Part shown: in pieces, positions 11,134-34,510 of the stretch
Layout: every line of letters starts with the position of its first letter
How positions within the stretch are numbered: position 1 is the first letter of the stretch
NCBI GenBank assembly: GCA_965223855.1
Contig: CBDCXM010000003.1
Coordinates: forward strand, 1 to 64,000
Length of the DNA: 64,000 nt
Direction of reading: 5' to 3'
Origin: Candidatus Multivoradales bacterium
GTDB taxonomy: Bacteria; Acidobacteriota; Thermoanaerobaculia; Multivoradales; JAHEKO01
Notes under the pieces: model-generated
What the model was told of the DNA's origin: nothing
The model's input: the letters and a program-made list of their open reading frames with translations, nothing else
The model's database searches: none
Translations under genes and position numbers: made by a program

Positions 11134-11180
11134 GAATGGCATTCAGGAGGTCGTCGGTTCGATCCCGATCGGCTCCACCA
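11134..11180 (+). other. attR: 3' half of tRNA-Ala(GGC)
   Basis: GAATGGCATTCAGGAGGTCGTCGGTTCGATCCCGATCGGCTCCACCA gives the anticodon loop, T-arm and CCA end. The 5' acceptor strand and D-arm are absent. Confidence 0.88.
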
Positions 11181-11310
11181 TGGCTGGCCTCGCACGTGAA
11201 CAGCCGCCAGGGCCGCGAACACCGAGGCTGAACCGGCGCACCGCCGCCGATCGCCAACTACCCGCCCGGGTGGTGCGTGGGTGCCCGCCGACTGCTAGCT
11301 TGATCAGGCG

Positions 11311-16066: not shown

Positions 16067-16090
16067 GGCTGCCTCCAGGGTGCTCAGCCG

Positions 16091-17866
16091 CTAGGCCGCA
16101 ACGCGGCTGCTGCCCTGCCGGAGAAGATGGTCCATCGAGAAGGTGCCCGACCCGCGCCACAGCAGGAGCATCAGGGCGAAAAGTACGAAGAGGGCGAACT
16201 GCAGATCCTGGCTGGCCCCGAACAGACCCTGTCCGGCGTGAACGAACGAGGCCGCTCCCAACAGCACCGTGATGTTGAGGAAGGCCGCGACCCGAGTCAC
16301 GAACCCCATGGCGAGGCAAATGCCGCCCACGGCATGGGCCAGCACCACGTACCAGGCGACGACAGTCGGAAAGTGACCGAACCCGGCCCCGAGTTGAGCC
16401 TCCACCTTCGAGGTGTCGAGGATGAAGTAGATCCCCTTGATCGCCAGAGCGATCCCCAGATAGATACGCAGCAGATCCATCGGCCGTAAGCCGCCGAGGA
16501 CATCCGGAAGAGCGGGCCAGCGGATCACCGCAGGTTTCCGCGGCTTCGCCCCTCTGGCTTCGAGCGCCTGTCTCAGCTCGGCTCCTGCGACAGCCTCCTC
16601 GGCGGGACTGAACGTCACCAGCAGAGTAAAGAACGAACAGACGAGAACGAGTCCTCCCAGGATCAGCAGCGCCTGGGGCCACGAAATCGCCTCGGCTCGA
16701 AAGAGGAAGCCTGCGGCGACGGCTCCCATGTTTCCTCCAGCTCCGACGATGCCGGAGACCGATCCGAGAGCCTTCTTGTTGACGAATGGCACGACGGAGA
16801 ACGTCGCGCCTTCGGACATCTGCACGAACAGGCTGAAGACCAGCATCGTTCCGATCGCCACCGGCAGGATGGACATCCGCGAGAAGAGAATCAAGGCGAC
16901 GCTCTCGACCAGCAGCGCAACGAACAGCCAGCGGACGCGGCCCTTCAGGCCCCACCGCGCACCGAACTTGTCTCCGATGATGCCGCCGGTGGTGCGAGCG
17001 AAGATGTTCATGAGGCCGAAGAGCCCCGCGACGAGGCCGGCAGTCTTGAGGCCAAGGCCGAAGAAGTCACGGTAGTAGAGCGCTGCGATGTTGTTGATCG
17101 TCAGCTCGACCCCGAAACAGGCGGCATACACCACGAAGAGGGCCCACACCCGCTTGTCCCGGGCGGCCATCTTGAACGTCCCGCGACTCTCCGAGTTGGA
17201 ACGGATCTCCCCTCTTGCCCTGAGTTCCTTGAAGTTCCCGTCCGGCAGGTCGGTGGTGAAGAAGTAATAGGCGACTCCCGTCAGGAGGCAGACCGCGCCT
17301 GCCAGCATCATCGACAAGCGCCACCCCCAGAACGGCGAGAAGCCGAGCCCGGTGATCGCAGCGAAGACGAGCGGCATGATCATCTGCGTGACCCCCCCTC
17401 CCAGATTGCCCCAGCCGGCCGAGGTCGCGTTCGCCGTGCCCACGACGTTGGGCGCGAACATCACGGAGGTGTGGTACTGCGTGATCACAAAGGCTCCACC
17501 GATGAAGCCGATCCCGAGTCTGAAGAGAAGGAAGGTCTCGTAGGTGTCGGCCAGCCCGATGGACATCACCGGAATCGAGCCGAGAACGAGCAACCAGGTG
17601 TAGGTGAGGCGCGGCCCGATCCGGTCGCAGAGCCAACCGATGAGCAGCCTGGCGAAGATCGTGATCGACACCGAAGCGATGATGGTGTTGCCGATCTGAG
17701 TCTTGGTGAGACCCAGTTCGTCGCGCACGATCGCCATCAGTGGGGCGATCCCGAACCACGAGAAGAAGCACAGGAAGAAGGCGAACCAGGTCATGTGGAA
17801 CGCCCGCATCGGCCTCGTTGCCAGGCTGAAGAGGTCGATTCTCGTGGCCTTGTTCTTGACGTCCAT
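16091..17866 (-). CDS. narK: NarK/NRT2-type nitrate transporter fused to a C-terminal DoxX-like domain
   Basis: MFS NNP motifs GTANATSAGWGNLGGG and GIVGAGGN; extra ~130 aa LLRIYLGIALAIKG...HAVGGICLAMGFVTRVAA...GSGTFSMD of DoxX type. Confidence 0.88.
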   Translation of the reverse strand: MDVKNKATRIDLFSLATRPMRAFHMTWFAFFLCFFSWFGIAPLMAIVRDELGLTKTQIGNTIIASVSITIFARLLIGWLCDRIGPRLTYTWLLVLGSIPVMSIGLADTYETFLLFRLGIGFIGGAFVITQYHTSVMFAPNVVGTANATSAGWGNLGGGVTQMIMPLVFAAITGLGFSPFWGWRLSMMLAGAVCLLTGVAYYFFTTDLPDGNFKELRARGEIRSNSESRGTFKMAARDKRVWALFVVYAACFGVELTINNIAALYYRDFFGLGLKTAGLVAGLFGLMNIFARTTGGIIGDKFGARWGLKGRVRWLFVALLVESVALILFSRMSILPVAIGTMLVFSLFVQMSEGATFSVVPFVNKKALGSVSGIVGAGGNMGAVAAGFLFRAEAISWPQALLILGGLVLVCSFFTLLVTFSPAEEAVAGAELRQALEARGAKPRKPAVIRWPALPDVLGGLRPMDLLRIYLGIALAIKGIYFILDTSKVEAQLGAGFGHFPTVVAWYVVLAHAVGGICLAMGFVTRVAAFLNITVLLGAASFVHAGQGLFGASQDLQFALFVLFALMLLLWRGSGTFSMDHLLRQGSSRVAA

Positions 17867-17936
17867 AGCTGGTTTCCCTACCTGGAGATGACTGGATCCG
17901 GTTCGTTGAGACGCGAGCGCATCGTCGACGCTCGGG

Positions 17937-19109
17937 CTAGCTGTGGTAGTGCAGACTCTCTGCGAGGAACGGGTCGCGCACGGGGGTGAGTGAGTGCCGT
18001 TGGAGCCTCCGGTCGACGATCACCAGCACGGCCGAGAGGGAGATCAGCAGAGAGCCGGTCTCGGCCCACCCGAAAGAGGGCGCCTCACCCGTGACCGGCG
18101 GGTGGATCTGGATCATCAAGTCGAGCCAGTGGGCGACGAGGACGACGGCGCTGATCCGCGCGACGAGACTCGCATTCGACTTCGCCCGGCGGCTCACCAG
18201 ACCGAAGAACGGCACCACCCACTTGAGGACGACGAGAGCGACCATCAGCGGCCCCCACCCGAGGCGCAGCCGATCCGTGTAGTGGACAACCTCCTCCGAG
18301 ACGTTGGCGTACCAGATCAACATCGCCTGGCTGAACCAGATGTACATCCAGAAGGTCGCCATGGCGAAGAGGAGCTTGCTCAGGTCGTGCAGGTGAGATC
18401 CCGAGAGGCGCACTTCCTCCCGCGTGTCGAGCCGGCAGGCAACGAGAAGCAGCGCAGCGAGGCCGGCAACGAACAGGCCGGAGAACTGGTACACGCCCCA
18501 CATGGTGCTGAACCAATGGGGCTCGAGCACCTTGAGCCAGTCCACCGAGGCGAGTGTCAAGGCCACCGAGCCCGTGAGAAGAAAGGCGGCCGACCACGCT
18601 CGGTTGCGGCCGGTCAGGGCCGGGTCGCCCGTCTCGTCCTGCCTCAGCGAGTTTCTTCGGATTGCGAGCGCGAAGAGGCAGAAGACGGCGATGTAGATCG
18701 CCGTCCGCAGGAAGTAGAAGCCGGGGCTGAGCCACACACCCTTGAAACCCGCAAAGTGCTGGTCCGCCGCCATCCACGGGTAGAGGCCGCGACCCCCGCC
18801 GACGAGCGCGACCGCCACCATCACCGAACCGACGGGGACGAGGTCCATCATCGCCTCGGGTATGCGACGGAACGCCGTGGCCCATCCCGCGTTGGCCGCG
18901 TAGTGGATGGCCACGAAGTAGAGCCCCGCCAACCCGATTCCGAGCAGAAAAAAGCCGGTCAGGAGAAGATTGGCCCAGGTTCGGGCAGGGCTCTGCACAA
19001 AGCCGAGCGCCATGCACAGGAGGCCGAGAATCGCCCACGCACGGAGCCAGCTGTTGCTGCTCGAGCTATCGCTGCTCGAGGCGGAGGTCAGAGGGCGGTC
19101 GCTCCTCAT
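17937..19109 (-). CDS. actF: Alternative complex III subunit F
   Basis: About 10 TM; VDWLKVLEPHWFSTMWG, HLHDLSKLLFA and FWMYIWFSQAMLIWYAN motifs. Confidence 0.88.
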   Translation of the reverse strand: MRSDRPLTSASSSDSSSSNSWLRAWAILGLLCMALGFVQSPARTWANLLLTGFFLLGIGLAGLYFVAIHYAANAGWATAFRRIPEAMMDLVPVGSVMVAVALVGGGRGLYPWMAADQHFAGFKGVWLSPGFYFLRTAIYIAVFCLFALAIRRNSLRQDETGDPALTGRNRAWSAAFLLTGSVALTLASVDWLKVLEPHWFSTMWGVYQFSGLFVAGLAALLLVACRLDTREEVRLSGSHLHDLSKLLFAMATFWMYIWFSQAMLIWYANVSEEVVHYTDRLRLGWGPLMVALVVLKWVVPFFGLVSRRAKSNASLVARISAVVLVAHWLDLMIQIHPPVTGEAPSFGWAETGSLLISLSAVLVIVDRRLQRHSLTPVRDPFLAESLHYHS

Positions 19110-20314
19110 TCGAGAGTCTCCTCGCGGCCGGCAATGTTGCCGGGATCGGGATCGGCAGGTGCGCTCGCCTGGAGATGGCGAACCCAGAGGACAGCACGCC
19201 AGCGATCGACCGGGTCGAGCTGCGACCGATGGGCCGGCATGTTCCCCTGCCCCATGCTGATGACGTGGAAGAGCTGCCCGTCGGCCATCGATCTCGCCTC
19301 GGACGCGAGCAGCGACGGCGGCGCCGGAAAGCCACGGCCGGCCACCAACCCGTCCCCCAACCCACCCGCCCCGTGGCAGAGCTGACAGAACGCCGCGTAG
19401 ACCTCTCGGCCCCGGTCGACGTCTGTGTCGGATTCGAGAAGGAGAGGGTTGGTCAGGCGGGCGGCCGCTGTCGCCGCGCCTTCCGGACCCGGTTCCAGCC
19501 GGTACGCGACGGACTCCAGACTTGCCGTCGTCAGCGGATTCCGGCCCCTGGAGATCGTCCCGGCGGGGGGTGCCTGCAGTACCTGGCCGTTCGGCAGCGC
19601 GGTCGTCCCAGCGTAAGACTCTGCCGCCACGGGCTGGATCATCTCGGGCAGGAACTCGGTGCCCCGCTGCTCGCTCCTCGGGACGATCGCGAAGTTCAGG
19701 ACCACCAGCAGGGCAAACAGACCGGCGAGCAAGAGGTTCAGCCGGCCGCGCCGGCCTGCCGGATCATCACTCTCGATGCCTCGGCCCAACCTCGCTTCCG
19801 ACCGGCGCTCGAGGCGGCTTTCGACGGCACGGTGCCGGCGGGCGATCGCCTGAGCGACCTCCGCGTCGAAGTCCGGAGAACTCGCGCTCACCGTCAGCGC
19901 GAAGCGGTCCGAAGTCGTCCGGCTGCTGACCGCCGGAGGCCGCTTGCCCGGGAAGAGACGGCTCGCCACGAAGAAGGCGCCGACGGTCGACAGCCCCGCC
20001 ACCAGAACACCGATCTCGAACGTCACGGGGATGAAGGCCGGGATCGACGCCAACGGCTTGCCCCCGATGTTGAGCGGCCAGTCCACAGCCGAGACCCAGT
20101 ACTGGAAGTAGAGCCCCAGCGCGGCGGCGCTGAGGCCGACAATGCCGCAGAAGTAGCCGAGACGGCTCCGCCGGATGCCGGCGGCGTCGTCGAGGCCATG
20201 CACTGCGTAGGGAGTGAAGGCGTCCTCGATCTCGAAGCCGGAAGCGCGGTACTCACGGACCGCATCCAGGATGTCGTCCTGGTGCTCGAACTCGACGGTG
20301 AAGTGCCGCTTCAC
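19106..20314 (-). CDS. actDE: Fused ActD (DUF3341)-ActE (monoheme cytochrome c)
   Basis: [12 protein letters not shown] and GGKP...IPVTFE (ActD); [11 protein letters not shown] and CQLCH...GNMP (ActE) in one frame. Confidence 0.85.
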
Positions 20315-21714
20315 GATCTCCCCTCCCGACGCCCACCTTCGGGAAGGACGGCCTTGACCTCCGCCATCGCGATCACCGGGAAGAAGCGGCAGAAGATGAG
20401 GAAGCAGGTGAAGAACAGGCCGAAGCTGCCGATGAGAGTGGCGATCTCGATCGAGGTCGGCGCGTAGTCGGCCCAGCTCGAGGGCAGGAAATCACGGTGG
20501 AGCGACGTGACGATGATCACGAAGCGCTCGAACCACATGCCGATGTTGATGAAGATCGTGGCGCAGAAGACGACGAGCAGGTTGCGCCGCATGCGACGGA
20601 ACCAGAAGAGCTGAGGCACGAGGACGTTGCACGAGACCATGATCCAGTAGGACCACGCCATCGGTCCGAGAGCGCGGTTGAGGAAGACGAATCGCTCGTA
20701 CTCGTTCCCCGAGTAGAGGGCGGTGAAGAACTCGGTCCCGTAGGCCAGCATGACGATGCCGGACGTCACGAGAACGAGCTTGGTCATCGCGTCGATGTGG
20801 TTGCGGGTCAGGTACTGCTCGAGGCGCATCGTTCGCCGGGCGATGATCATCAATGTCAGGACCATCGACATGCCGGAGAAGATCGCTCCCGCCACAAAGT
20901 AGGGCGGGAAGATCGTCGTGTGCCAGCCTGGCAGCACGGCGGTGGCGAAGTCGAAGCTGACGATCGAGTGCACCGAGAGGACCAGCGGCGTGGCCAGGCC
21001 GGCCAGCAGCAGGTAGACGAGTTCGTATCGGTGCCAATCCCTCAGCGAGCCGCTCCAGCCGAGACTCAGGTACGAGAACACCCGTTGACGCCAACCCCCG
21101 AGCCGGTCGCGCAGCGTCGCCATGTCCGGAATCAGGCCGAAGTACCAGAAGACGGCCGAAACGATGAAGTAGGTGCTGATGGCGAAGACGTCCCACAACA
21201 GGGGCGATCGGAAATTCACCCACAGAGAGCCGCGGAAGTTCGGATACGGGACCATCCAGAAGGCGAGCCACGGGCGTCCCATGTGGATGATCGGAAAGAT
21301 GCCGGCGCAGATCACCGCGAAGAGCGTCATCGCCTCGGCGGCCCGATTCACTCCGGTTCTCCACCGCTGGCGCAGCAGGAACAGCACCGCAGAGATCAAG
21401 GTGCCGGCATGCCCGATGCCGACCCAGAACACGAAGTTGGTGATGTCGAAGGCCCAGCCGACCGTCTTGTTGAGTCCCCAGGTTCCGATGCCGACCCGGA
21501 TCTGGTAGGTCACTGCCACCACGCCGAGAAACAGCATCGAGGATGACAGTGCCAGGGCGACCCACCACAGCGCGCTCGGCCTGGCCTCGATCGAACGGCT
21601 GATGTCTTCGGTGACCTCGGCCAGGGACTTGTCACCCTCGACGAGCGCCGGTCGCGTGCCGACGTCGGGCCGTGCCAGCTCGGCGGGGGCCGCCTCAGGC
21701 ATGGTGGGGCTCAT
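20311..21714 (-). CDS. actC: Alternative complex III subunit C (NrfD/PsrC family)
   Basis: [51 protein letters not shown]. Start taken at ATG 21714. Confidence 0.92.
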
Positions 21715-24700
21715 GTTCTTCCTCGTCGCGATTGCGGACCACACGCAGGTAGCCGACGGAGGGGAGGATGTTGAGTTCCTCGAAGATCCGGTAGTGTCGC
21801 TGGGAGCGCAGCGCCTTCGAGATCCGGCTTTCGGGATCGGTCGTGTCGCCGAAAACGATGGCGTCCGCGGGGCACGACTGCTCGCACGCCGTCTGGAAGT
21901 CGCCGTCCTCGAGTTCCCGGCCCGCACCGGCCGCTTCGATCTTGGCGCCCTCGATCCGCTGCGCACAGAACGAGCACTTCTCCATCACACCGCGTGATCG
22001 CACCGTGACGTCGGGATTGAGGACGAGCCGCTCCTCCGCATCGGGCCGCGGATACTCGAACCAGTTGAAGCGCCGCACCTTGTACGGGCAGTTGTTCGCG
22101 CAGTAGCGCGTCCCGACGCAGCGGTTGTAGACCTGCTGGTTCAGCCCCTCTTCGCTATGGACGGTCGCCGCAACGGGGCAGACGCTCTCGCATGGGGCGT
22201 TGTCACAGTGGTGGCAAAGCATCGGCTGGTGGAAGACATCGACCCCGTCATCGCGGTGTGAGTAGTAGCGGTCGATCCGCATCCAGTGAAGATCGCGGCG
22301 ACGTCGCACCTCGTCGCGCCCGACGACCGGGATGTTGTTCTCCACCTGACAGGCAATTACGCAGCCCGAGCAGCCGGTGCAGGCCGACAGATCGATCGCC
22401 ATCGCCCAGTGATGTTCACCCTCGGGGTACTCGGACCACAGGTTTCCGTCGAAGTGGTGGCCGTGTGGCTTACCGGCGCTCCGGTCGCGCAGAAAGGCGG
22501 GCAGGACCGTCTCCTGGATCATCGGCCGGCGCTCGCCACCTGCAGGCCTGAACCGTTCCGGAACCTCGAGATCGCCGTAGGTCTGCGAGAAGGCGAGCGG
22601 CTCCCGCCTCCCGGTCGGCCGAATGGAGACCGACTGCCCGTCGGGTCGCAAGTGCCCGTCGTCCCAGCGGAGCCAGTCGTTCGCTCGGCGACCGACGGTG
22701 CCCCCCCGGGCGACGGTCGGCCTTGCCTCCAGCCAGTCGGGACCGACGCCGTGAAACCGGTCGGTCCCTTCACGGCCGTAGCCGAGGGCGACCGCGACGA
22801 CCCCCGGATGTTGCCCCGGTTGCAGATGCGCCGGAAGCTCCAAAGCAACGCCTGCGGCCGAGAGCTCTACCAGATCGCCGTCCTCGACACCGAGCGCGTC
22901 GGCGGTCTCCGGAGCCAGGCTCGCGTAGTTGTCCCACGAAACCTTGGTGATCGGGTCCGGGAGTTCCTGCAGCCAGGCGTTGTGAGCGTGGCTGCCGTCG
23001 AGCATCCCGACCTTCGGATAGAGCAGCAGTGTCGTCGCCACCGGCTGCGGCCTGGCGACCGGCGCAAGCACCCCTTCGAGCGCCGCGAAGTCGAACGGCC
23101 GGAGCTGCGGCGCCCCGGCCTCGACGTCGATCTGACCTCGTCGGACGGCCTCCTCCCAGTTTGCGTCGACTCCGGCGCCCGCCCTAGGCGCCACTTGCGC
23201 CGCCCACACTTCGCAAACCCACTCGAGGCTGGTGGCCGGATGACCCGCCCAAGCGGCGAGCGAGGAGGCGAACGCCCTTGTGTTTCCTCGCGAGTTGATC
23301 AGCGGCTGGGTGACACTCAGGTGGCCGGCGACCGGTTCAGCAATCCGCCAGTCCTCGAGAAAGTGAGGCTCGGGGCACACCCCGCCGACGGCGCCGGCGG
23401 TCTCGTCGACCGAGCGTGCGAAGGAGACCGTCAGCGCCGTCTGTGCGAGCCACCCTTTCCACCGTTCGCCCGTGGGCAGGTCGTAGACCGGATTGACACC
23501 GCGGATCAGGAGGACCTCGACCGCTCCGGCCTCGAGCTCTCGCTCCAGCCCCGCGAGGGCGGCATCGTCGCCGCGTCGCTGGTACGAAGGACGCTCCAGC
23601 GAGAGGGTCGCCCCGTAGTTGCCAAGCAACTCATTGACGAGGCAGCACAGCAGCTGAGCTCGCAGGCTCTGGCTGCCACTGACGACCAGAGATTCGCCAC
23701 GCGCGTCCCACAGACGGTCGGCCAACCTCGCGATCCACTCGGGGCGATTCCCCGAGGGCCTCAGAGCAGCGGCCGCTCGAGGACTCCGATCCGAGCGATC
23801 GGCGACCAGAGCCGCCAGCTCTCTGAGAGCCCATGCCGTCTCCTCTGGATGCAGGAGGACGCGTTCGTCGGCGTTGCTTCCAGTGAGCGAGAGGCGAGCC
23901 TCCGCCTGAAGATGGAAGGAGAGGTCGGGCGCCTCCCCTTCCAGCGAGCGTCCGCTGCCGTACGCGGCGGTGAACTCGACCGGAGAGATCCAGGTGCCCA
24001 GGAAGTCGGCATCGAAGCCGGCGATCACCCGTGCTCGGGCGAAGTCGAGCCGCGGCAGTGTGCGGATTCCGAAGACGGCATCGTGCGCATCGAGCATCGC
24101 CGCACTCGACAGCGGGTCGTACATCACGTGTCGGAAGTCGGTGAACGCTGCAGCAAACCGTTCGATCGCAGCGAGGTCGCTCGGGCTGTGGAGGCTCCCG
24201 GTCAACAGCCGCACGGGCAGCCCCTGCTCGGCCGCTCGCTGCAGCACCACGCCAATCTCGGCGTCGACGGTCGACCAGTCGCTCGACTCCCCGTGCCAGA
24301 TAGGGGATCGCGCAGCTCGAGAGTCGTAGAGCTCCAGCAGGCTCGCCTGACCGACGGCGCACAGACCGCCGCGACTCAAGGGATGCAGGTCGTTCCCCTC
24401 GAGTTTGATCGGCCGCCCGTCACGGCTCTTGCCGAGGACGCCGCACCCCGCCGTACAGGCAGCGCACGTCGAGGCATACCAGGTCGCCGTGCCGGGTACG
24501 CTCTCGGGGTCCGCATGAAGCAGTGGTACGGCGTGCTCCAACGGGCTCCTGCTGCAACCGGTCGCGAATGCCAGGGCGAAGCCGCTCGCCTTGAGGAAGT
24601 CGCGACGATCGAGCGCCAGCCTGGCTCGGACGTCAAGCGCCGATGGACCCCCATCCGTCCGATCCCCGGACGCACTTTCGCCCGGAGACATGAAGTAGAG

Positions 24701-24721
24701 CGGCGGCTTCTTCTGACTCAT
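21695..24721 (-). CDS. actB: Alternative complex III subunit B (Tat-exported molybdopterin-oxidoreductase-like plus Fe-S domain)
   Basis: Tat motif DRRDFLK. C-terminal [42 protein letters not shown]...CEQSCP; WMRIDRYY. Confidence 0.92.
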
Positions 24722-24728
24722 AGATTCC

Positions 24729-25382
24729 TCAGTAGTGGCAAGCGACGCAGTCCGTGGAAGCTGAGGGATCGGCGGCCCTGCCGGCCCTCCCGTGCGGATC
24801 CCGGTGGCAGCTCACGCACCAGCCCATGGACAGGTCCTCGACCTGGCGGACCCGCTCCATCGTCTCCACCGGGCCATGGCACTTCTGGCACTGCACCCCC
24901 GCCGCGACGTGGGGGCGATGATCGAAGGCGACGAAGTCGGGCACCCGGTACACACGGGCCCAGCGCACAGGGGTGGGTTCGGCGGAGGGGTCGGGTTCGA
25001 GATCGTCCCCCAGCCCCAACGCCGCATAGAGCTTGCTCAGCTCGGGCGACACGACCCTCTCAGGGGTCCTACCCTGCTCCTCGGCGGCGAGCTCTTCGGC
25101 CCGGATCTGTGAGCGCGAGGCCGTGATGAACTGGTGACAGTTCATGCAGACGCTGGCGGACGGGATTCCGGCCATCGGACTTCTGGTGACACCCGAGTGG
25201 CAGTACCGGCACTCGATCCCCAGCTCGCCGGCGTGCAGGCGATGCGAGTAGGCGATCGGCTGTTCGGGCTCGAAGCCCGAGTGGTTGCCGGGGAGTCGCA
25301 CTTCGCCGAGCCTGGGCACCAGTGCCAGGCTCGCCAGGGCGATGCCCACCAGAAGCAGCAGGGTCCAGACTCGTGAGCGCAT
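24729..25382 (-). CDS. actA: Alternative complex III pentaheme cytochrome c subunit A
   Basis: N-terminal TM; PEQPIAYSHRLHAG; five CxxCH (CRYCH, CMNCH, CQKCH, CVSCH, CVACH). Confidence 0.92.
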   Translation of the reverse strand: MRSRVWTLLLLVGIALASLALVPRLGEVRLPGNHSGFEPEQPIAYSHRLHAGELGIECRYCHSGVTRSPMAGIPSASVCMNCHQFITASRSQIRAEELAAEEQGRTPERVVSPELSKLYAALGLGDDLEPDPSAEPTPVRWARVYRVPDFVAFDHRPHVAAGVQCQKCHGPVETMERVRQVEDLSMGWCVSCHRDPHGRAGRAADPSASTDCVACHY

Positions 25383-25400
25383 CCGTGACTCGTCCGGGCC

Positions 25401-26111
25401 TCAGCGCAACGACCGGGCTGTTCTGGGGTCACGGTTCCAGCGCACGACCTGACGCTTGCGCCACAGGTACTGGTTGGGCACCACGAGCACGTGAACCAGA
25501 CGAGTGAACGGGAAGAACCCGATGAGGACCCAGGCGTTGAGGATGTGCAGCTTCACCGCCCAGGGCATCGCTTCGATCCAGGTGACATCGGGATTGAGCT
25601 TGACCAGCGACCACAGGTACGGCGCCGCGGACGAGGCGAACCACGAAGATCCCCAGGGATGGAAGACTGCGATGTAGACGCCCGACGCCACCTGAGTGAC
25701 GAGCAACAGGTACAGCATCTTGTCGGCCCGTGAGGTGACGACGCGGAGCTTGGAGCTGTTGGCGCGACGCGACAGGATCGCCAGCAGTCCGACCAGAGAG
25801 ACGATGCCCGCGACCAGTGCCGAGCCTTCGAGAATGTAGAGGCGCAACGGCTTCGCGTTCCAGGCGAGGATGCTTCGCGGTACGAGGAAGGCGACGATGT
25901 GTCCCGCGAGAACGGTGAGGATCCCGTAGTGGAACGGCACCATCCCCCAGAAGTGCTGCCGGTTCTCGAGGAACTGCGACGACAGGCTCGAGTAGGTGAA
26001 GCTCTGAGCCCGGTAGCGGTAGACGGTGCCGAGGAAGAACAGCACGATCGCCACGAACGGCAAGGCCGCGAAGAGAAGCTGATCGAGATAACGCGCAACC
26101 TCCGTGTTCAT
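25401..26111 (-). CDS. narI: Respiratory nitrate reductase gamma subunit (cytochrome b)
   Basis: SSLSSQFLE, PFHYGIL..LAGH, KLHI, FPFTRLVH; the four heme b histidines are present. Confidence 0.93.
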   Translation of the reverse strand: MNTEVARYLDQLLFAALPFVAIVLFFLGTVYRYRAQSFTYSSLSSQFLENRQHFWGMVPFHYGILTVLAGHIVAFLVPRSILAWNAKPLRLYILEGSALVAGIVSLVGLLAILSRRANSSKLRVVTSRADKMLYLLLVTQVASGVYIAVFHPWGSSWFASSAAPYLWSLVKLNPDVTWIEAMPWAVKLHILNAWVLIGFFPFTRLVHVLVVPNQYLWRKRQVVRWNRDPRTARSLR

Positions 26112-26710
26112 GGTGCTGACCTCGCTGGGTTGGGCTTCCTGTTGCCGCCGAGCTGGACCAGATCAGGGCGACGCTGGATCTGCGCGATCGGCAGCTCGCC
26201 GGCTTCGTCCTCGGCCAGGCGCGTAGCAGCCGAGACCAGCCCCCCGAAGGGGCTGTCGCTGTCCTCGAAGGCGGTTCTCATCTCGCGCAGTGCGGGAACC
26301 AGAAAGCGGGCGGCGAACGGCTGCCGATCGACCGGCTCGAGACGCCCGGTCGCCTCGAGCATCAGACTCAGATGGTCCGGTAGCTCGCCGTCCTCCGCGA
26401 TCGACAGATGCTGCAGCAGACTGCGGGTCCGAACGAGGAACCGCCCGCGCTCGTACTGCTCTCCGTAGAGGTGCCAGCCGATTTCGAGGGCGCAGATCGG
26501 GTTCATATCGAAGGTCCGGGTGTAGAGCTCCTCGATCTCCCAGGGCTCCTTATCCGTCAGCGGCCCCTCGACGGCGCGGAGGTCCTCGGCTGCCTCGGGT
26601 GAGGCCTCTTCGACCTCGGGAAGACAGGCCTGGAGGCGGGCGAGATACCCGGCACCCGGGTAGGTGAAGAGCCGGCCGAGACCGGCCCAGAGCTCGGGTG
26701 TGCGGCTCAC
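26108..26710 (-). CDS. narJ: Nitrate reductase molybdenum cofactor chaperone
   Basis: ELYTRTFD...YGEQYERG...ELPDHL; GTG start overlaps the narH stop. Confidence 0.88.
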   Translation of the reverse strand: MSRTPELWAGLGRLFTYPGAGYLARLQACLPEVEEASPEAAEDLRAVEGPLTDKEPWEIEELYTRTFDMNPICALEIGWHLYGEQYERGRFLVRTRSLLQHLSIAEDGELPDHLSLMLEATGRLEPVDRQPFAARFLVPALREMRTAFEDSDSPFGGLVSAATRLAEDEAGELPIAQIQRRPDLVQLGGNRKPNPARSAP

Positions 26711-28197
26711 AGCCCCCTCCTCGGCCCCTCGTTGAAGCCGAAGCCGACGCTCTGCCGATGGCCGTGCGGCTCCTCCATCATCTCGATCGCCTCTTCGCGA
26801 TGCATCGGCGGGATGACGAAGCGCTCCTCGAAGGTGCACAGCGCCGTCAAACGGTAGATGGCGTCGGCTTGCTCAGGGGTGCAATCCGCCTCTTCGAGGG
26901 CGCGCGCCGCCGTCTTGTCGTCGACATCGCCGACGGTCAGGGCACGGCGGTGCAACCGGATCGCTTTCTGCTTGCGCAGCGCATAGCGCACGACCCCTTC
27001 GTTGCCCGAGCCGAGAAGGCGCGCGAGGTACTCGATCGGCACCCGCGACTGGTCGATGTCGTGGAAGAGATTGCCGCTCAGATGGTAGACGCTGTCGCCG
27101 TCCTTGCCTGCCATGACCGGCGAGAGCGGCGGTACGTAGAAGAGCATCGGCAGAGTCCGGTACTCGAGATGCGGGGGCAGAGCGATCCCCCACTCCTTGA
27201 CGAACTTGTAGACCGGCGACTTCTGCGCCGACTCGATGACGTCGTCACCGAGCCCGTTGGCCTTCGCTTCGGCGATCACCTTCGGGTCGAAGGGGTCGAG
27301 GATCATGTTGCGGTGTCCATCGATCAGCTCGTCGTCCGGCAGCTCGGCGACGCGCTCGATCTGCTCCGCGTCGTAGAGAAGGACTCCCAGGTATCGAATC
27401 CGCCCCACGCAGGAGTGGAAGCAAGCGGGCGCCTGGCCGGTCTCGAGCCGCGGGTAACAGAGGATGCACTTCTCCGACTTGCCCGAGTGCCAGTTGTAGT
27501 ACGTCTTCTTGTAGGGGCATGCGGCGATGCACGAGCGCCACGCGCGGCACCGCTTCTGATCGATGAGTACGATCCCGTCCTCACCGCGCTTGTAGAGAGC
27601 CCCGGACGGGCAGGAGGCGACGCAGGACGGGTTGAGGCAGTGGTTGCAGATCCTGGGCAGGTAGAAGAACACGAGCCGCTCGACGGAGGAGAGTTCCTCG
27701 CGCTGTTTCGGAGTCAGGGCCTCGAGGTTCGGGTCGCTGGCCGCGTAGACTTCAGAGCCGCCGAGGTCGTCGTCCCAGTTCGGGCCCGCCTCCACCTCCA
27801 TGTACTCCCCGGTGACTCGCGAGACGGGCCGCGCGACCGGCTGGTCGTCGCCCTCCGGGGCGTTGAACAGCTCCTTGTAGTCGTAGGTCCACGGCTCGTA
27901 GTAGTCGTCCATGCTCGGTTGGTGAGGGTTGTGGAAGATGTTGCCGACCAGCTTCGCGTTGCTGGTCGACTTCAACTTCACCTCCCCGTCCTCGATCTCC
28001 CATCCGCCCTGGTACGCCTCCTGGTTCTCCCACGCCGTCGGGTATCCGGTGCCCGGCTTGGTCTCCACGTTGTTCCACCACATGTAGTCCGTGCCCGGCC
28101 GGTCCGTCCAGACGTTCTTGCAGGCGATCGAGCAGGTGTGGCAGCCGATGCATTTATCCAGGTGGAACACCATCGAAACTTGAGATCTCACATCCAT
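26707..28197 (-). CDS. narH: Respiratory nitrate reductase beta subunit
   Basis: LDKCIGCHTCSIACKNVW, YLPRICNHCLNPSCVASCPSGA, CRAWRSCIAACPYKK. Confidence 0.96.
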   Translation of the reverse strand: MDVRSQVSMVFHLDKCIGCHTCSIACKNVWTDRPGTDYMWWNNVETKPGTGYPTAWENQEAYQGGWEIEDGEVKLKSTSNAKLVGNIFHNPHQPSMDDYYEPWTYDYKELFNAPEGDDQPVARPVSRVTGEYMEVEAGPNWDDDLGGSEVYAASDPNLEALTPKQREELSSVERLVFFYLPRICNHCLNPSCVASCPSGALYKRGEDGIVLIDQKRCRAWRSCIAACPYKKTYYNWHSGKSEKCILCYPRLETGQAPACFHSCVGRIRYLGVLLYDAEQIERVAELPDDELIDGHRNMILDPFDPKVIAEAKANGLGDDVIESAQKSPVYKFVKEWGIALPPHLEYRTLPMLFYVPPLSPVMAGKDGDSVYHLSGNLFHDIDQSRVPIEYLARLLGSGNEGVVRYALRKQKAIRLHRRALTVGDVDDKTAARALEEADCTPEQADAIYRLTALCTFEERFVIPPMHREEAIEMMEEPHGHRQSVGFGFNEGPRRGL

Positions 28198-28225
28198 CGC
28201 CGTGTCTCCTCGTCGCTCGTTTCGA

Positions 28226-31200
28226 CTACCACTCGATCCGCGCCAGCCGGCGAACGAGAATGTGGGTGTCCCGGTTGCAGCCGGTCGGCCCCCAGTAGTT
28301 GAAGTGGTAAGTGAACTGGCCGTAGCCGCCGGCCATCAGGTTGGGCTTGAGTCGGGTTCGGGTCAGGCTGTTGTGCCCTCCGGCCCGCCGGTTGCCTCGC
28401 AACGGCGACCGCGGCACCGAGATGGTCCGCTCGGGGGAGTGGTACTGAATGCAGATGCCGCGCGGGATGCGCGCCGAAACGGCGGCCCGGGTGACGACGA
28501 CTCCGTTGTCGTTGAAGACCTCGACCCAGTCGTTGTCCTCGATCTCCAGCTCAGCAGCGTCGCGGTGGTTGATCCAGAAGGGCTCGCAGCCGCGAGACAA
28601 CACGGTCATGCGCTCGTTGTCGCCGTAGGTCGAGTGAATGTGCCACTTGCCGTGCGGCGTGAGGTAGTTGAGCATCATCGTCTTGCCGGGATCGTCCGAA
28701 AACACCAGATCGGCATACTCGGTCGGCAGCGGCTTCGGCTTGTAAGTCGGGAGGTGCTCGCCGAACTCGAGGTAGAGCTCGTGATCGAGATAGAAGTGCT
28801 GGCGACCCGTCAACGTGCGCCAGGGCACAAGCGTCTCCACGTTGTAGGTGAAGGGCGCGTAGGCGCGGCCGTTCTCGGTCAGGCCGGACCACATGGGACT
28901 GTTGAGGAGTCGGCGCGGCTGGGCCTGCAGGTCCGAGAAACGGGTCCGTACGCTGCGTGACTTCTCGGCCAGGTGGGCCAGGTCGAGCCCTGTCTTCTCC
29001 TCCATGTTGCGGTACGACCGGTAGGCGAGCTCACCGTTGGTGACGGTCGCCAGATGGAGGATGGCGTTGCAGGCCTCGATGTCCTCCCTGATCGACGGAT
29101 AGCCGTGTCCGTTCCATTCACTCGATGGCTGCCGCTTCGCGAGCTCGTCGTAGGCGTCCTCGCAGCGGTAGCTCGTGCCGTGGGCACCCAGGCCGTCGTC
29201 GCGCACCCCTGGGCCCAGAGCGCAGAATCGGGCGTAGAGGTTGGCGTAGTCGCGCTTGACGATCTTCAGGTTGGGCATCGTGACGCCCGGAATCGCCTCG
29301 ACCTCGCCGTTCATCCAGTCGGAGATCTCCCGCTGGGCGATCTCCGCCGGCGAGTCGTGAGCCAGTGGGGCGGCTACCAGGTCCTCGACCGGCTCCGGGA
29401 AGTGTCGCTTTGCCAGCTCGGAGAACTTCTCGGCGATTGCACGGAAAATCTGCCAGTCGCTCTTCGACTCCCACGACGGCGGCACGGCGGGCGCCAACGG
29501 GTGAATGAAGCTGTGCATGTCGGTCGAGTTGAGGTCGGCCTTCTCGTACCACGTCGCCGCCGGGAGGACTATGTCGGAGTAGAGCGCCGAGGTGTCCATC
29601 CGGAAGTTCAGGTCGACGACCAGATCCATCTTGCCGTTGGGCGGCGGGCGCCAGGTCACGTCCTGAACGGAGTCCTCGGCCATGTCTTCCGCCACCGCGT
29701 TGGTGTGCGTTCCGAGGTAGTGCTTCAGGAAGAACTCGTGCCCCTTGGCAGAGGCCATCAGGGCGTTGCCGCGCCAGATGTACCAGACTCGGGGCCAGTT
29801 CTCCTCTGCGTCCGGATCCTCGACCGCAAACTGGAGCTCACGGTTCTTGAGTTGGTCGATGACCCTGTCGATGACGTCCTTGTCGGTCGTCGCGCCCTGC
29901 TCGCGAGCCTCCCGCACGAGTTCGAGTGTGTTGCGATTGAACTGCGGGTAGAACGGCAGCCAGCCGGAGCGGACCGCCCGCACCTGCAGATCCATCGTGT
30001 GCCCCCGGGCGAGTTTCGATTCCGAAGAGGTCGGGACGGTGTGGTAGTCGGTGAACGACTTCTCGTACCGCCACTGGTCGGTGTGGACGTAGTGCCAGCT
30101 CGGGGCGTTTTGCAGCCGGGGAACGGGGCCCCAGTCCTTGCCCAGAGCCAACGCTCCCCACGACTCGCCGGGAGCGAGTTTCTCCTGGCCGACATAGTGC
30201 GCCAGCCCTCCACCGTTGACACCGACACAGCCACAGAACATGAGGGCGTGGATGCCGGCCCGGTACATGAGGTTGGCGTGGTACCAGTGGTTCACCCCGG
30301 CGCCGATGACGATCGTGCAGCGCCCACCGGTCTTCTCGGCCGTGACACCCCATTCGCGCGCGAACTGGACGACCATGTCGCGGCTCATGCCGGTGAAGCG
30401 CTCGGCCCAGGCCGGCGTGTAGGGCATGTCGTCGTCGTAGCTCTCCGGGTAGGCCCCGGGCAGCCCGCGGGGGACGCCGTATTGCGCCATCAGCACGTCG
30501 TAGACGGTGGCGACGGCGACGCGCTCGCCGTCATTCGTCTCGACCCAGCGGACCGGAACGCCGCGAGTCAGCTCTCCCCCTTCGGCAAAGTCATCGAAGG
30601 AGAGCTGCAGAACCTCGTCGTGCCGATCGAGGAAGGTGAGGGTCGGGTCGATCCGTGAGCCATCGACACCGTCCTCCAGCTTCAGGTTCCACTTGCCCTT
30701 CTTCTCTCCCCAGCGGTGTCCGGAACTGCCCATCGGCATCTTCGGCCGATCCTCGGAGGCGTCCCACATGAGGAACTTCCACTCGCCGTGCTCCTCGTCC
30801 CGATACCGGTCGAGCCTCCCAGCCCGAAGCATCTGTCCCGGACGGTTGTCGTCTTCCTCGCGCCTCACCTCGACCAAGAAGCCGGAGTCCGTGTACTGCT
30901 TGACGTAGTCGGCGAAGTAGGGAACCTGCCGGTCGTGGTGGAACTCCTTGAGGAGGACGTGATTCACCGCCATCCACCAGGCGCCGTCCTGGCCGGCATT
31001 GAGCGACACCCACTCGTCCGCGTACTTGGCGACCTGGCTGAAGTCCGGCGAGAACACCCACATCTTGGTGCCGTTGTGCCGTGCCTCGGCGGCGAAGTGG
31101 CAGTCCGGCGTACGGGTCATGTTGAGGTTGGACCCCATCACCGCGAGCAGCTTGGCGTTGAACCAGTCGGCCGACTCGTTGACGTCCGTTTGCTCGCCCC

Positions 31201-31861
31201 AAGTCTCGGGCGAAGCGTTGGGAAGGTCGCAATACCAGTCGTAGAAGGACAGCGAAACGCCGCCCATCAGTTGCAGCATGCGGGAGCCGCTGGCGTAACT
31301 GATCATCGACATGGCGGGGATCGGCGAAAACCCGGTCACGCGATCGGGCCCGTACTTCTTGATGGTGTGGATGTTGGCGGCCGCCATGATCTCCAGCACC
31401 ACATCCCACTCCACTCGTCGGAAGCCGCCTTTGCCACGCGCCTTGTGAAAGCGCGCGCGCCGGGCGGGATCGCTGATCAGGCTCTCCCACGCTTCCACCG
31501 GGTCGTCGAAGCGCGAGCGTGCCTCACGCCACAGATCCATCAGCGCGCCACGGATGTAGGGGTACTTCACCCTCAGGGGGCTGTAGAGGTACCAGGAGTA
31601 GGAGATCCCACGCTGGCACCCGCGCGGCTCGTAGGGCGGCAGGCCCTCTTCGAGCTCCGGGTAGTCGAGCCCCTGCATCTCCCAGGTGACGATGCCGTTC
31701 TTGACGTAGATATCCCAGGTACAGCTGCCCGTGCAGTTGACGCCGTGGGTCGACCGCACGACCTTGTCGTGCTGCCAGCGGTTCCGGTAGAACTCCTCCC
31801 AGCTCCGGCCTTCGGGGTCTACCTCGTCCTTGATCCAGTGAATGGAGTTCTTCGGCTTCAT
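28226..31861 (-). CDS. narG: Respiratory nitrate reductase alpha subunit (cytoplasmic, no Tat signal)
   Basis: [56 protein letters not shown]; ATG 31861 overlaps the upstream stop (ATGA). Confidence 0.96.
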
Positions 31862-32727
31862 CGTTGGCCTTTCACGAGTGCTCGACGAACGCCCCGGAAG
31901 CGTTTGCGCCAAAGGCCGTCGGAGGCCATGAAGCCGAACCCGGCACCTCCGAGGCCGAGAAGCAGAAGCGTCAGGCGCGCGGTGCCCGTGTCCTCGTTCC
32001 TCGTATGTGCTGCGTCCTCGAGGAACGCGACCAGCGGGCCGATCTCCTCGTTGGTCAGGCTGCGCGAGGCGTAGACCGGGCGCATGATCTCCGTCGCCGG
32101 GGCCAGCAGCCACGACGCGAGGTTCTTGCGACCCTGAAGTCGCTCGTAGACCCTGGTCAGGTCCGGCCCGAGCCGGCCTCCACCCAGGCCGGAGAGCCCT
32201 CCGACCGTGTGGCAGGAGAGGCAGGAGGGGCCGCCGTTGGTGAGCCGCGCCTCGCCGGAGAACAGCGCCATCCCGCGCTCGATGTCGGCTCGCGTGAACG
32301 GCTCGTCACCGATATCGAGGCCGGCGAACTGCGACTCGTCCTGCAGCGACTCCGCCGCGATCAGGTCGAGCAGCGCTTCCGCCTGCTTGCGGGTGAGGCC
32401 CGCCGAACGCGGCATGATCACGCCACCCGCCTCGTCCTTGATCTGGAGAGCGTAGGCGTCGCCGCGATCGAAGAACGCCTGCGGGTCGAGCACGAAGCCG
32501 ACCAGCCATTCGCGATCCTTGCGATCGTCGACGTTCTTGAGATCGGGGCCCACGAGCCGTCCGCCACCGACGGTGTGGCAGCTCACGCAGCTCTGGCGGA
32601 AGATCTCCGCGGCCTCCTGCGACCAGAGCGCACCCGTCGACAGCTGGCCCCCGGCCGTGAGGAAGACTGCGACGGCGAGCAGAGGATGTCGAGGTAACGA
32701 GAAGGTCCGAAGCGCAAGATCTAGCAA
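31858..32727 (-). CDS. narC: NarC-like diheme cytochrome c with C-terminal membrane anchor
   Basis: CVSCH...GPDL and CLSCH...GPDL; signal peptide; C-terminal TM; TTG start after GGAGG; position directly before narG as in Thermus narC. Confidence 0.8.
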
Positions 32728-34286
32728 GGCACCTCCGCGCCCTTCCGGGCGTAGTACCACCAGTTGACGACGAGGCAGATGGCGTAGAAAGCGGCGAACC
32801 CCCAGAGTGCGTTCTGCGGCGTTCCGGCGCGGATCTGCTCGCCGAAGATCCTCGGGATCAGGAACGCTCCGTAGGCGGCCACGGCGGAAGTCCAGCCCAG
32901 CACGGGCCCGGCCTGCTCCTTGTCGAACATCACCCCCATCGATCGGAACGTCGAACCGTTGCCGACGCCCGTGGCAGCGAAGAGCAGCAGGAAAAGGGCG
33001 AGGAACGGCACGAAAAACTGCTCGGGAGTCTCTGAGCGGTACGCGAGGTTCATGAAATAGGCGACCGCCAGCGCCGAGCCGATCATCACCAGGGTGACCA
33101 TCTGGGTGACCTTGGCGCCGCCGATCTCGCGATCCGAGATCCAACCGCCGATCGGCCGGATCAACGAGCCGACCAACGGGCCGAGCCAGGCGAAGGTGAA
33201 GGGGTTCGGAGCGTTGGGGTTGACCCCGAGCTCGGCGCCGGTCGGGTCGTGCACGAAGCCGAAGATCACCTTGATCGAGAGCGGGAAGGCGGCCGAGAAG
33301 CCGATGAACGACCCGAACGTCATGGTGTAGATGAGGGTCATCCACCAGGTGTGTTTGTTGCGGAAGATCGAGAACTGTCGGGCGAGGGGTTCGCGCACGT
33401 CGCCCGGGACCATCTTCATGAGCAAGAGCGTGGAGGCGATCACGAGGGGGAGGACGAGCCACTTCGAAACGCCGACGACCAGCATCGCCCAGAGCCCGAC
33501 GGCGGCAGCCGCGAGACCGACCCCCAGGAGGGTGAAGACGCGCAGGAAGGCCACCAGCGAGGACCTGACTCCGGGCGAGACCCACTCCGTGGTGATGTTG
33601 TTCATGCCGAAGAAGGTGGCGAAGCCGAGCACGATGAGAACCGGGATCCAGACGAGGCCGGCGTTCTGGACGTAGCTGACGGTCCCTGACTCCTGCGGTA
33701 GTGGGTGCCCGGCACCGCCAAGGCTTCCGAAGAGAGCGAAGGTCATGACCAGCGGCAGCAGGAACTGCATGACGCTCACGCCGAGATTCCCGAGCCCGGC
33801 GTTGATGCCGAGGGCCGTACCCTGCATACGCTTGGGGAAGAAGAAGCTGACGTTCGACATCGAGGAGGCGAAGTTCCCGCCCCCGAGACCGGAGAGCGCG
33901 GCCAGGCCCCAGAAGACCCAGAGAGGCGTGTCCGGGTTCTGAAGGGCGATGCCGGCCCCGATCGCAGGCACCAGGAGCAAGCTGGTGGTCAAGAAGATCG
34001 TGTTGCGCCCGCCGGCGATCCGAATCAGGAACGAACTCGGAATCCGCAGGGTGGCACCGACGAATCCGGCGATCCCGGCGAGCGTGAAGAGCTCCTCCTT
34101 CGAGAAGGGGAAGCCGAGATTGAGCATCTCGGTCGTGATGATGCTCCAGTAGAGCCAGACGGCGAATCCACACAGCAGGCTCGGGACCGAGATCCACAGA
34201 TTGCGGCGGGCGACGCGTTGCCCGGTCTTCTCCCAGAACTCGGGATCTTCGATCTCCCACCGCTCCAGGTTGACCTCGGGTCTCAC
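32721..34286 (-). CDS. narK: NarK-type nitrate/nitrite antiporter
   Basis: WEIEDPEFWE...RRNLWIS, GGGNFASSMSN..FFFPK, NAGLGNLG, GVGNGSTFR; GTG start after GAAAGG. Confidence 0.92.
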   Translation of the reverse strand: MRPEVNLERWEIEDPEFWEKTGQRVARRNLWISVPSLLCGFAVWLYWSIITTEMLNLGFPFSKEELFTLAGIAGFVGATLRIPSSFLIRIAGGRNTIFLTTSLLLVPAIGAGIALQNPDTPLWVFWGLAALSGLGGGNFASSMSNVSFFFPKRMQGTALGINAGLGNLGVSVMQFLLPLVMTFALFGSLGGAGHPLPQESGTVSYVQNAGLVWIPVLIVLGFATFFGMNNITTEWVSPGVRSSLVAFLRVFTLLGVGLAAAAVGLWAMLVVGVSKWLVLPLVIASTLLLMKMVPGDVREPLARQFSIFRNKHTWWMTLIYTMTFGSFIGFSAAFPLSIKVIFGFVHDPTGAELGVNPNAPNPFTFAWLGPLVGSLIRPIGGWISDREIGGAKVTQMVTLVMIGSALAVAYFMNLAYRSETPEQFFVPFLALFLLLFAATGVGNGSTFRSMGVMFDKEQAGPVLGWTSAVAAYGAFLIPRIFGEQIRAGTPQNALWGFAAFYAICLVVNWWYYARKGAEVPC

Positions 34287-34510
34287 GTCCGATCGCCTTT
34301 CGGTTCGCGGCTCGGGTCGCCCCTGTTCGAGGCCTCCCCACCGCTGGTGACTGTGTGCCTCGCAAGGTAGCGGCTCGCCGGACGAGCGCCAAGCATCCCG
34401 GGGTGGGGCGGAGCCACCCCCAGAGAGGGGGGCGGAAACCCGACTGCGGAGGTGGCGCACGACGCTCTCTCGGATGCCAGCATGGGGGATTGACAAGGAG
34501 AGTTCCCGAC

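Follow-up and report, generated by a model that had tools for sequence, protein, structure and literature searches.

The 64,000-nucleotide stretch of contig CBDCXM010000003.1 from a Candidatus Multivoradales bacterium (the window, meaning the whole of the DNA that was analysed) carries the genes of an Alternative Complex III (ACIII) among those of a membrane-bound nitrate reductase (Nar). We are confident that this is a complete, apparently functional ACIII inserted in a nar operon of the Thermus type, that both form one transcription unit, and that the complex is a member of a phylogenetically distinct, widespread ACIII class found with nar genes in place of oxidase genes. This suggests that ACIII, a complex mostly associated with oxygen respiration, exists in a nitrate-linked form as well.

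The operon consists of twelve genes, arranged head to tail along the minus strand between window positions 34286 and 16091 in the order narK, narC, narG, narH, narJ, narI, actA, actB, actC, actDE, actF and narK2::DoxX. A preliminary description, made from the DNA letters, had proposed this order; all genes were found where it had placed them, and the junction sizes it had reported agree with the measured values. In gene order the junctions are -7, -4, +28, -4, -4, +18, +7, -20, -4, -4 and +70 bp, with negative values for overlaps; the 18 bp lie between narI and actA (25383..25400) and the 70 bp between actF and narK2. A terminator or promoter between narI and actA, which the preliminary description had considered as an objection to a joint operon, was not predicted: the 18-bp gap holds no terminator-like or promoter-like site and leaves no space for a separate promoter and terminator. 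The signal search as a whole gave 0 promoter-like sites and no terminator-like site at gene junctions on the coding strand, and terminator-like sites numbered 6 against 8.4 +/- 3.0 expected; such counts carry little weight for a high-G+C organism, whose promoters may differ. The claim that no haem-copper oxidase follows the act genes also held, since tblastn with COX1, COX2, COX3 and CtaB against the whole 64 kb window returned no oxidase gene.

The act genes appear to encode a genuine and intact ACIII with all six subunits, ActA to ActF. ActA (24729..25382, minus strand, as are all operon genes) is a cytochrome c with five haems, anchored in the membrane by its N-terminus (TM-like segment at 5-23; Pfam Cytochrome_C7), and its five CxxCH motifs are invariant across an alignment of 40 ActA sequences. 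ActB (21695..24721; Pfam Fer4 and Molybdop_Fe4S4) consists of a MopB-like domain, predicted to be without Mo cofactor (B1), fused to an Fe-S domain (B2), and it matches chain 6F0K_B of Rhodothermus marinus with E=3e-161 over residues 38-999 and 6BTM_B of Flavobacterium johnsoniae with 1.6e-160. Its N-terminus carries the Tat motif RRDFLK. A Tat-exported protein in which a cofactor-less MopB-like domain is joined to an Fe-S domain with four clusters is characteristic of ActB in ACIII. The quinol-binding membrane subunit ActC (20311..21714; NrfD-like, Pfam NrfD) gave the strongest structural matches (6BTM_C, E=1.8e-181; 6F0K_C, 6.7e-177). ActF (17937..19109), a second NrfD-like membrane subunit, had no Pfam match and was recognized by structure chains (6BTM_F, E=1.5e-49; 6F0K_F, 1.9e-48).

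ActD and ActE are encoded as a single protein, ActDE (19106..20314), in which a two-helix ActD, an extra transmembrane helix and a monohaem cytochrome c follow each other. Its halves match 6F0K_D (1.3e-24) and 6F0K_E (3.7e-16), with PF11821 at 168 bits and Cytochrome_CBB3 as the domain families. TM-like segments lie at residues 52-121 and 194-212 and the CxxCH motif, the only one of ActE, at 310. In the structure, ActD begins and ends on the cytoplasmic side, so that the third helix (194-212) is topologically needed in the fusion.

The residues that Sousa et al. named for the quinol pocket and for coupling are ActC P136, H139, L166, D169, S245 and D253 and ActD E122 (PMC5928083, in the passages on these sites). 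When aligned to 6F0K_C (R. marinus numbering), the window's ActC has all six, with V250 replaced by isoleucine as a change, and alignment to 6F0K_D places a glutamate at ActD E122. The act genes are predicted to encode a quinol:cytochrome c oxidoreductase. As a related system, the menaquinone reductase Qrc (QrcABCD) of sulfate reducers was tried as an assignment and rejected; the proteins are relatives but not members, with 59.6 versus 180 bits for QrcA, 101.5 versus 440 for QrcB and 214 versus 400 for QrcC.

The nitrate reductase genes are equally well assigned by the NCBIfam curated models. The catalytic subunit NarG (28226..31861) scores 1521 bits with TIGR01580 (cut-off 1084), the Fe-S subunit NarH (26707..28197) 664 bits with TIGR01660 (cut-off 524), the assembly chaperone NarJ (26108..26710; also Pfam Nitrate_red_del) 62.5 bits with TIGR00684 (cut-off 59.35) and the dihaem b membrane subunit NarI (25401..26111) 128 bits with TIGR00351 (cut-off 106). 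The N-terminus of NarG contains the motif HGVNCTGSC, presumably the binding site of the FS0 cluster, and no RR motif; since there is no twin-arginine signal, the active site is cytoplasmic. NarG has 63-64% identity with its Thermus counterpart, compared with 47-50% for NarG/NarZ of E. coli and other proteobacteria, and NarH is 58% identical to Thermus NarH.

NarI matches E. coli 1Q16_C at E=4.5e-22. The four haem histidines, stated to be intact in the preliminary description, indeed align with H56, H66, H187 and H205 of the E. coli protein and are all retained. At the position of E. coli K86, the quinol-site lysine, NarI of the window has an arginine, as do Thermus NarI and all 13 nar-linked loci described below; this basic residue may serve in place of the lysine.

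Directly upstream of narG lies narC (31858..32727), for which we chose the TTG start at 32727 over an alternative GTG at 32760. The 289-residue product is a membrane-anchored, predicted periplasmic dihaem cytochrome c with CxxCH motifs at 47 and 169. Its N-terminus is hydrophobic (a signal or anchor), and at its C-terminus a hydrophobic helix precedes a basic tail. Over residues 37-236 it is 30.6% identical (tblastn, E=6e-9) to the c-type cytochrome whose gene sits immediately upstream of narG on 13 plasmids of Thermus thermophilus, and its homologues form more than 120 clusters at 48% identity or above. By these features NarC fits the fourth Nar subunit of the Thermus type. Passages of PMC7694296 describe Thermus NarC as a fourth subunit of Nar that interacts strongly with NarI in two-hybrid assays and that cells with repressed complex III require to grow on nitrite or NO.

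Two transporter genes flank the set. The first narK (32721..34286, GTG start at 34286, 521 residues) and narK2::DoxX (16091..17866) both encode NarK-family major facilitator superfamily (MFS) proteins (Pfam MFS_1), the former a predicted nitrate/nitrite transporter and the latter extended by a C-terminal DoxX domain. Their labels in the preliminary description stand as far as NarK-like MFS proteins are concerned, but both score slightly below the TIGR00886 cut-off of 311.7 bits (273 and 305 bits, respectively). The NarU model gives 323 bits for the first, and DoxX 37.7 bits for the second (cut-off 23.6). The fusion is rare: none of the 82 other loci has the DoxX part, and of the 150 best representatives in a library of 1.84 billion proteins two cover it, namely P0361, which is full-length (593 aa, 66% identical), and the fragment P0386.

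To see how often the two gene sets occur together, we used an alignment of ActB relatives to scan genomes, one for each species, and kept the best 80 of at least 591 stretches (loci L001 and following). Queries against these loci were the proteins of the window and the loci's own oxidase subunits. The sample is rich in Bacteroidota; its best locus has 56% ActB identity, and neither the closer ActB relatives found by protein search (61-72%) nor the genome of the window itself is among the 80. Nar genes lie directly upstream of actA, with no cox genes, in 13 of the 80 loci (L001, L002, L003, L006, L007, L009, L010, L011, L013, L014, L015, L017 and L018). Cox genes without nar genes were found in 47, almost all from Bacteroidota, with COX2, COX1, CtaB and COX3 after actF. 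The other 20 are mostly too short on one side; exceptions with long flanks, including L012, L059, L043 and L069, show neither nar nor cox. The narI-actA adjacency that the preliminary description had drawn attention to is thus not unique to this contig.

In 12 of the 13 nar-linked loci NarI is 49-68% identical to that of the window, L018 being divergent. In L002, L010, L013, L014, L015 and L018 narI abuts actA, and in L001, L003, L006, L007, L009, L011 and L017 one or two narK genes stand between them. With start codons as we chose them, the gap into actA is between -14 and +69 bp in 16 of the 17 clusters listed, and 212 bp in L006. All five loci whose sequence extends upstream of narG encode NarC (L002, L006 with a partial one, L013, L014 and L018), and none of the 13 contains an oxidase gene. 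The description of the act genes as embedded in the nar operon holds for this window, but in most relatives they close the operon, after narI or after narK. What follows actF in the nar-linked loci differs from one to the next and has no relation to respiration (an esterase, an amidohydrolase, GcpE, an alginate-export porin, a racemase, regulators and, in L009, a hemerythrin protein), which indicates that the conserved unit is nar(C)GHJI, narK and actABCDEF and nothing else.

The pairing persists down to 44% ActB identity and over at least four phyla, with nar and act contiguous while the position of narK varies. A further hint of breadth comes from the best ActB, NarI and NarC relatives in a large protein collection, which fall on contigs of equal size in 9 cases for ActB and NarI, 6 for ActB and NarC and 5 for NarI and NarC; we infer that such pairs share a contig, and several of the coincidences involve contigs of only 5.9-19 kb. 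Other relatives in the protein searches lie on NCBI/ENA contigs of 3.99, 4.41, 4.55 and 5.22 Mb. Searching a plasmid collection with the nar-type ActB yielded 19 records with identities no higher than 39%, and the single record that was inspected is not nar-linked.

The ActB tree separates the two kinds of locus. It was built from 80 rows (IQ-TREE quick search, LG+G4; L017 was omitted since its ORF is cut) and its deepest supported split, a branch with an SH-aLRT value of 99, divides the sampled sequences into two sides. The nar side has 17 rows, namely the window, 12 nar-linked loci and four loci without upstream sequence, and the other side 63, of which 47 are oxidase-linked and 16 unjudged. 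When the 13 nar-linked rows are compared with the 42 non-nar rows that have at least 5 kb of upstream sequence, the nar label requires a single change on this tree. The ActC tree (72 rows, five short or interrupted ORFs omitted) agrees except for one row: 11 of 12 nar-linked rows fall in one set with support of 97 and the label takes two changes, because ActC of L018 falls outside this set, at the end of a very long branch. The joint occurrence of ACIII and a NarC-containing Nar is real, recurrent and confined to one lineage that spans at least four phyla. Taxa on the nar side are Acidobacteriota (Vicinamibacterales, Terriglobales, Solibacteraceae and Thermoanaerobaculia), Planctomycetota, a metagenome-assembled genome (MAG) of the Bacteroidia, Candidatus Zhuqueibacter and two MAGs without classification. 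In the tree, the row from the Bacteroidia clusters with the nar side and apart from other Bacteroidota, which indicates that the nar-act block moves horizontally.

A structural feature of ActA follows the same division. In all 15 nar-linked or nar-side loci ActA has five CxxCH motifs, whereas 56 of the 62 other ActA proteins, mostly from oxidase-linked Bacteroidota, have a sixth in an added N-terminal cytochrome c domain. ActA of the window is 50-64% identical to ActA of the other nar-linked loci, with L014 (38-39%) and the partial ORF of L010 (57%) set apart. According to a passage of PMC5928083, the extra ActA domain of F. johnsoniae replaces the cytochrome c domain of the oxidase. The sixth-haem domain is weakly similar to the haem domain of NarC (25-37% over 52-134 residues), and by analogy NarC may be the hand-over cytochrome of the nar-linked form, the counterpart of the extra ActA domain. 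The ActD-ActE fusion is less widespread: it occurs in the window (19106-20314), L014:14128-15363 and L018:14287-15408, and ActE is a separate ORF in 62 other loci.

Some loci carry only part of the Nar set. In two loci from Acidobacteriaceae, L012 (Terracidiphilus, 7785-16740) and L059 (Candidatus Angelobacter, 3648-12639), genes for a NarC-like dihaem protein and a NarI-like protein immediately precede actABCDEF, and NarG, NarH and NarJ were not found within 10 kb (L012) or 5.9 kb (L059) upstream of actB. Their NarI-like proteins have lost the haem ligands of the cytoplasmic side (H56 replaced by R or Q, H205 by I or T) and kept the pair on the periplasmic side, and their NarC-like proteins are without the C-terminal helix. 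In the ActB tree both loci branch off close to the base of the non-nar side, and in both actF is followed by a gene for a conserved Big_5-domain protein of 940-951 aa. Locus L018 (3113-16487), on the nar side, encodes a NarC (53%), a NarH-like (47%) and a NarI-like protein (40%) but no NarJ. Its NarG-like sequence is only 32-37% identical and matches in two reading frames; it may represent a different catalytic subunit, a pseudogene or an assembly error.

The preliminary description is supported in part: the association of the two gene sets holds, and its mechanisms (a supercomplex, an added coupling step, a supply of downstream reductases, or reverse flow in a nitrite oxidizer) are proposals. 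How electrons would run through the two complexes can be framed from these data. The mechanism that we favour, with a probability that we put only a little short of even, is that ACIII acts as the nitrate-induced complex III of an anaerobic chain, with NarC as a c-type node common to Nar and ACIII and with electrons passing on to reductases encoded elsewhere. Under nitrate and anoxia, the one operon would yield two menaquinol oxidases. NarI would oxidize quinol and send the electrons across the membrane to NarH and NarG, as in the classical redox loop. ACIII would oxidize quinol at ActC and pass the electrons over FeS1 of ActB and the haem wire of ActA and ActE to periplasmic c-type cytochromes, a step that is probably energy-conserving, as proposed for other ACIII. 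The membrane-anchored dihaem NarC, whose Thermus homologue binds NarI, would be the c-type node between both complexes, and from there cytochrome c-dependent nitrite, NO or N2O reductases encoded elsewhere could be supplied. ACIII would then be the complex III of a nitrate-driven anaerobic chain and not of the oxygen chain.

Some background is in line with this scheme. Thermus, which has no ACIII at this locus, must oxidize quinol at NarI, and since the window's NarI has the same arginine and histidines, the direct NarI quinol route is probably intact. The haem potentials of E. coli NarI, which are not values for this operon, lie below that of the ActE haem. As the latter is +165 mV in R. marinus (PMC5928083), NarC appears more natural as an electron exit than as an entry. 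Excerpts of the literature further cite ACIII as feeding N2O reduction in bc1-less denitrifiers (PMC9270275) and report that many Phycisphaerae genomes have ACIII and narGH and frequently no terminal oxidase (PMC11266412).

Several points weigh against the favoured mechanism. The supposed downstream acceptors are never syntenic with the cluster and nar always is: nir, nor, nos, nrf and cox genes were not found within up to 10 kb after actF in the nar-linked loci. By analogy with what is proposed for Thermus, ACIII would look redundant if NarC and NarI already export electrons. The NarC/NarI-type pair stays with ACIII in L012 and L059 without NarGH, which suggests a tie closer than shared regulation. 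Furthermore, the proposed scheme is drawn from the genes of this window and of the sampled loci.

The main rival is a chain in which the two complexes work in series, possibly as a supercomplex. Electrons would then pass from menaquinol over ActC/ActB and ActA/ActE to NarC, from there to haems bD and bP of NarI and on to NarH and NarG, so that nitrate reduction would be cytochrome c-dependent. NarCGHI and this ACIII clade would make up a single respiratory assembly in which ACIII is the quinol oxidase and NarC donates to NarI, with L012 and L059 as its relics. The synteny, always with nar and NarC and never with nir, nor or nos, points in this direction, as do the separate clade of nar-linked ACIII, the NarC-like and NarI-like genes kept in L012 and L059, and the minimal pentahaem ActA, for which NarC might provide the bridge. 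The span from menaquinol to nitrate has room for an extra coupling site, and if the serial chain were true, proton translocation by ACIII would be added to the charge separation at NarI, giving more energy per nitrate than the textbook NarGHI loop. However, NarI resembles that of the ACIII-less Thermus in its four histidines and in a basic residue at position K86, and direct quinol oxidation at NarI would short-circuit the chain. Transfer from c-type haems, at the potential of R. marinus ActE, to the low-potential haem bD, for which the E. coli values are taken, would also run uphill and against the membrane potential. We consider the serial chain, both as an electron path and as an assembly with relics, roughly half as likely as the mechanism that we favour; the NarI quinol site, being the same as in Thermus, does not separate the two.

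Two further explanations were weighed. The enzyme could run as a nitrite oxidoreductase (NXR), with electrons leaving through NarI and NarC and ACIII using the proton motive force to reduce quinone for NADH formation. Passages of PMC7694296 describe a Nitrobacter cluster that is very similar to the narC-type cluster of Thermus and works as an NXR, with the NarC homologue as electron exit, and NarG of the window is indeed nearest to the Thermus, NarC-type group and not to the E. coli type. Against this, neither the window nor any nar-linked locus has an oxidase, and genes for carbon fixation were not seen among those of the 64 kb window. By their record titles, the carriers are MAGs of Acidobacteriota, Planctomycetota, Bacteroidia and Zhuqueibacter, and we know of no nitrite oxidizer in these groups. 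With the Phycisphaerae that often have ACIII and narGH without a terminal oxidase, and with the ACIII of a Nitrobacter hamburgensis plasmid adjoining oxidase genes instead of nxr, reverse flow seems very improbable. Adjacency without coupling, in which an ordinary ACIII of the oxygen chain landed beside nar on a mobile island and shares neither electrons nor regulation with it, would fit the transposase genes at 2424-4116, the truncated lyase gene after narK2 and the lower G+C content of 1-36 kb. It would also fit the horizontal movement implied by a clade that cuts across phyla, and the oxidase genes downstream of the cluster in five Planctomycetota instances that appear in excerpts of PMC10732223. 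It is difficult to combine with the tight spacing of the two gene sets over at least four phyla and down to 44% ActB identity, with their contiguity while narK moves, with an 18-bp gap too small for a promoter and a terminator of its own, and with the finding that none (0 of 9) of the nar-side rows with at least 9 kb examined downstream has cox genes. Mere hitch-hiking is thus improbable, if slightly less so than reverse flow. A complex prediction for the soluble parts of ActA (residues 30-217) and of the ActE domain (215-402) with NarC (35-247) as partner, each with its own alignment, gave a score of 0.00 (mark 0.32) and is neutral on binding.

Comparison with known systems shows which parts are shared. 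The narCGHJIK(T) cluster of Thermus thermophilus (plasmid pTHTHE1601) has the same order of cytochrome c, narG, narH, narJ, narI and MFS transporter, with identities of 63% for NarG, 58% for NarH, 39% for NarI and 31% for NarC. In both, NarC has two CxxCH motifs and a C-terminal membrane helix and NarI the same four histidines and arginine. In contrast, no ACIII occurs in or near the Thermus operon, whereas here actA to actF lie between narI and the second transporter gene and an extra narK precedes narC. The Thermus regulators and the Nrc dehydrogenase, mentioned in passages of PMC7694296, were not seen in this window.

The structurally known ACIII of R. marinus (6F0K) and F. johnsoniae (6BTM) share with the window the six subunits, ActC H139, D169, D253 and S245, ActD E122 and the Tat motif of ActB. 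They form supercomplexes with caa3 or aa3 oxidases, whereas here no oxidase genes follow. The window's complex differs from them also in the fusion of ActD and ActE by an extra helix and in a pentahaem ActA without the sixth domain, and it stands on the opposite side of the deepest supported ActB split from respiratory ACIII. With Nitrobacter, the likeness is in the NXR cluster with its cytochrome c exit (PMC7694296, in part), but the ACIII of N. hamburgensis is linked to an oxidase and not to nxr. That locus (L082, plasmid 1, 132176-158389) encodes a canonical ACIII followed by SCO, coxB and cox subunits I, III and IV.

The arrangement itself is not wholly new, and the novelty implied by the preliminary description was overstated. 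As reported in the relevant excerpts of PMC10732223, Planctomycetota MAGs have Nar genes upstream of an NrfD-type cluster with six genes in 13 instances. The components and their order match those described here: Nar, then a cytochrome with five haems, a fused Mo-less MopB/4Fe-4S protein, NrfD, ActD, a cytochrome of the c type and another membrane subunit that binds quinone. According to these excerpts, the authors found that the cluster matches no described complex and took it as a possible new nitrite reductase; ACIII is not recognized in them. In our full-text literature search this was the only paper that describes the arrangement. The ACIII gene-cluster surveys of Refojo and Pereira may mention it. 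New here are the breadth over more phyla, the ActB clade of its own and the link to NarC, together with the assignment of ACIII subunit by subunit.

The findings also bear on how ACIII is used as a marker. In the sections concerned, a study of the MopB superfamily (PMC10100899) treats ActB as "exclusively in aerobic respiration" and uses it for dating. A multi-phylum clade of ACIII that always occurs with nitrate reductase and never with an oxidase argues against such exclusivity. The nar-linked clade would give ACIII a defined anaerobic role, and metagenome pipelines would misread such organisms wherever ACIII is taken for an "aerobic" marker. The energy yield from nitrate in soil and sediment Acidobacteriota and Planctomycetota, and the function of NarC as exit or entry, become experimental questions.

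Around the operon, weak signs suggest that the nar-act block lies in acquired DNA. An IS3-family (rve) and an IS110-family transposase gene occupy 2424-4116, and a 223-aa remnant of a beta-eliminating lyase (15232-15903) directly follows narK2::DoxX. The G+C content is 0.60-0.68 in 1-36 kb versus 0.67-0.71 in 38-64 kb. GC3 values of the nar-act genes (0.81-0.89) and neighbouring genes (0.72-0.93) differ only weakly, and neither G+C nor GC3 was relied on. Divergent from the first narK and outside the operon lies a gene for a ScdA/RIC-type di-iron protein (34355..35209, plus strand; Pfam ScdA_N and Hemerythrin). Together with the hemerythrin-domain gene after actF in L009 and an Rrf2 regulator gene before narC in L013, it gives a weak hint of NO-responsive control.

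A search with Rfam at gathering thresholds and a tRNA scan detected no RNA genes in the window. On the plus strand at 11311-15235, a gene for a 717-aa membrane protein with four CxxCH motifs and one of the CxxxCH type (weak matches to c554 and MtrC-like proteins) is followed by one for an FG-GAP repeat protein, and both converge on the nar-act operon. Further upstream on the same strand (5892-10912) are genes for an ECF-type sigma factor, two ORFs without a known family and an 864-aa TPR-CHAT protein. At the other end of the window, 49054-58496 holds a glycogen/alpha-glucan cluster with a CBM48/alpha-amylase-family enzyme, a 4-alpha-glucanotransferase, an alpha-glucan phosphorylase with DUF3417, an amylase-family protein and a GlgC-like nucleotidyl transferase.

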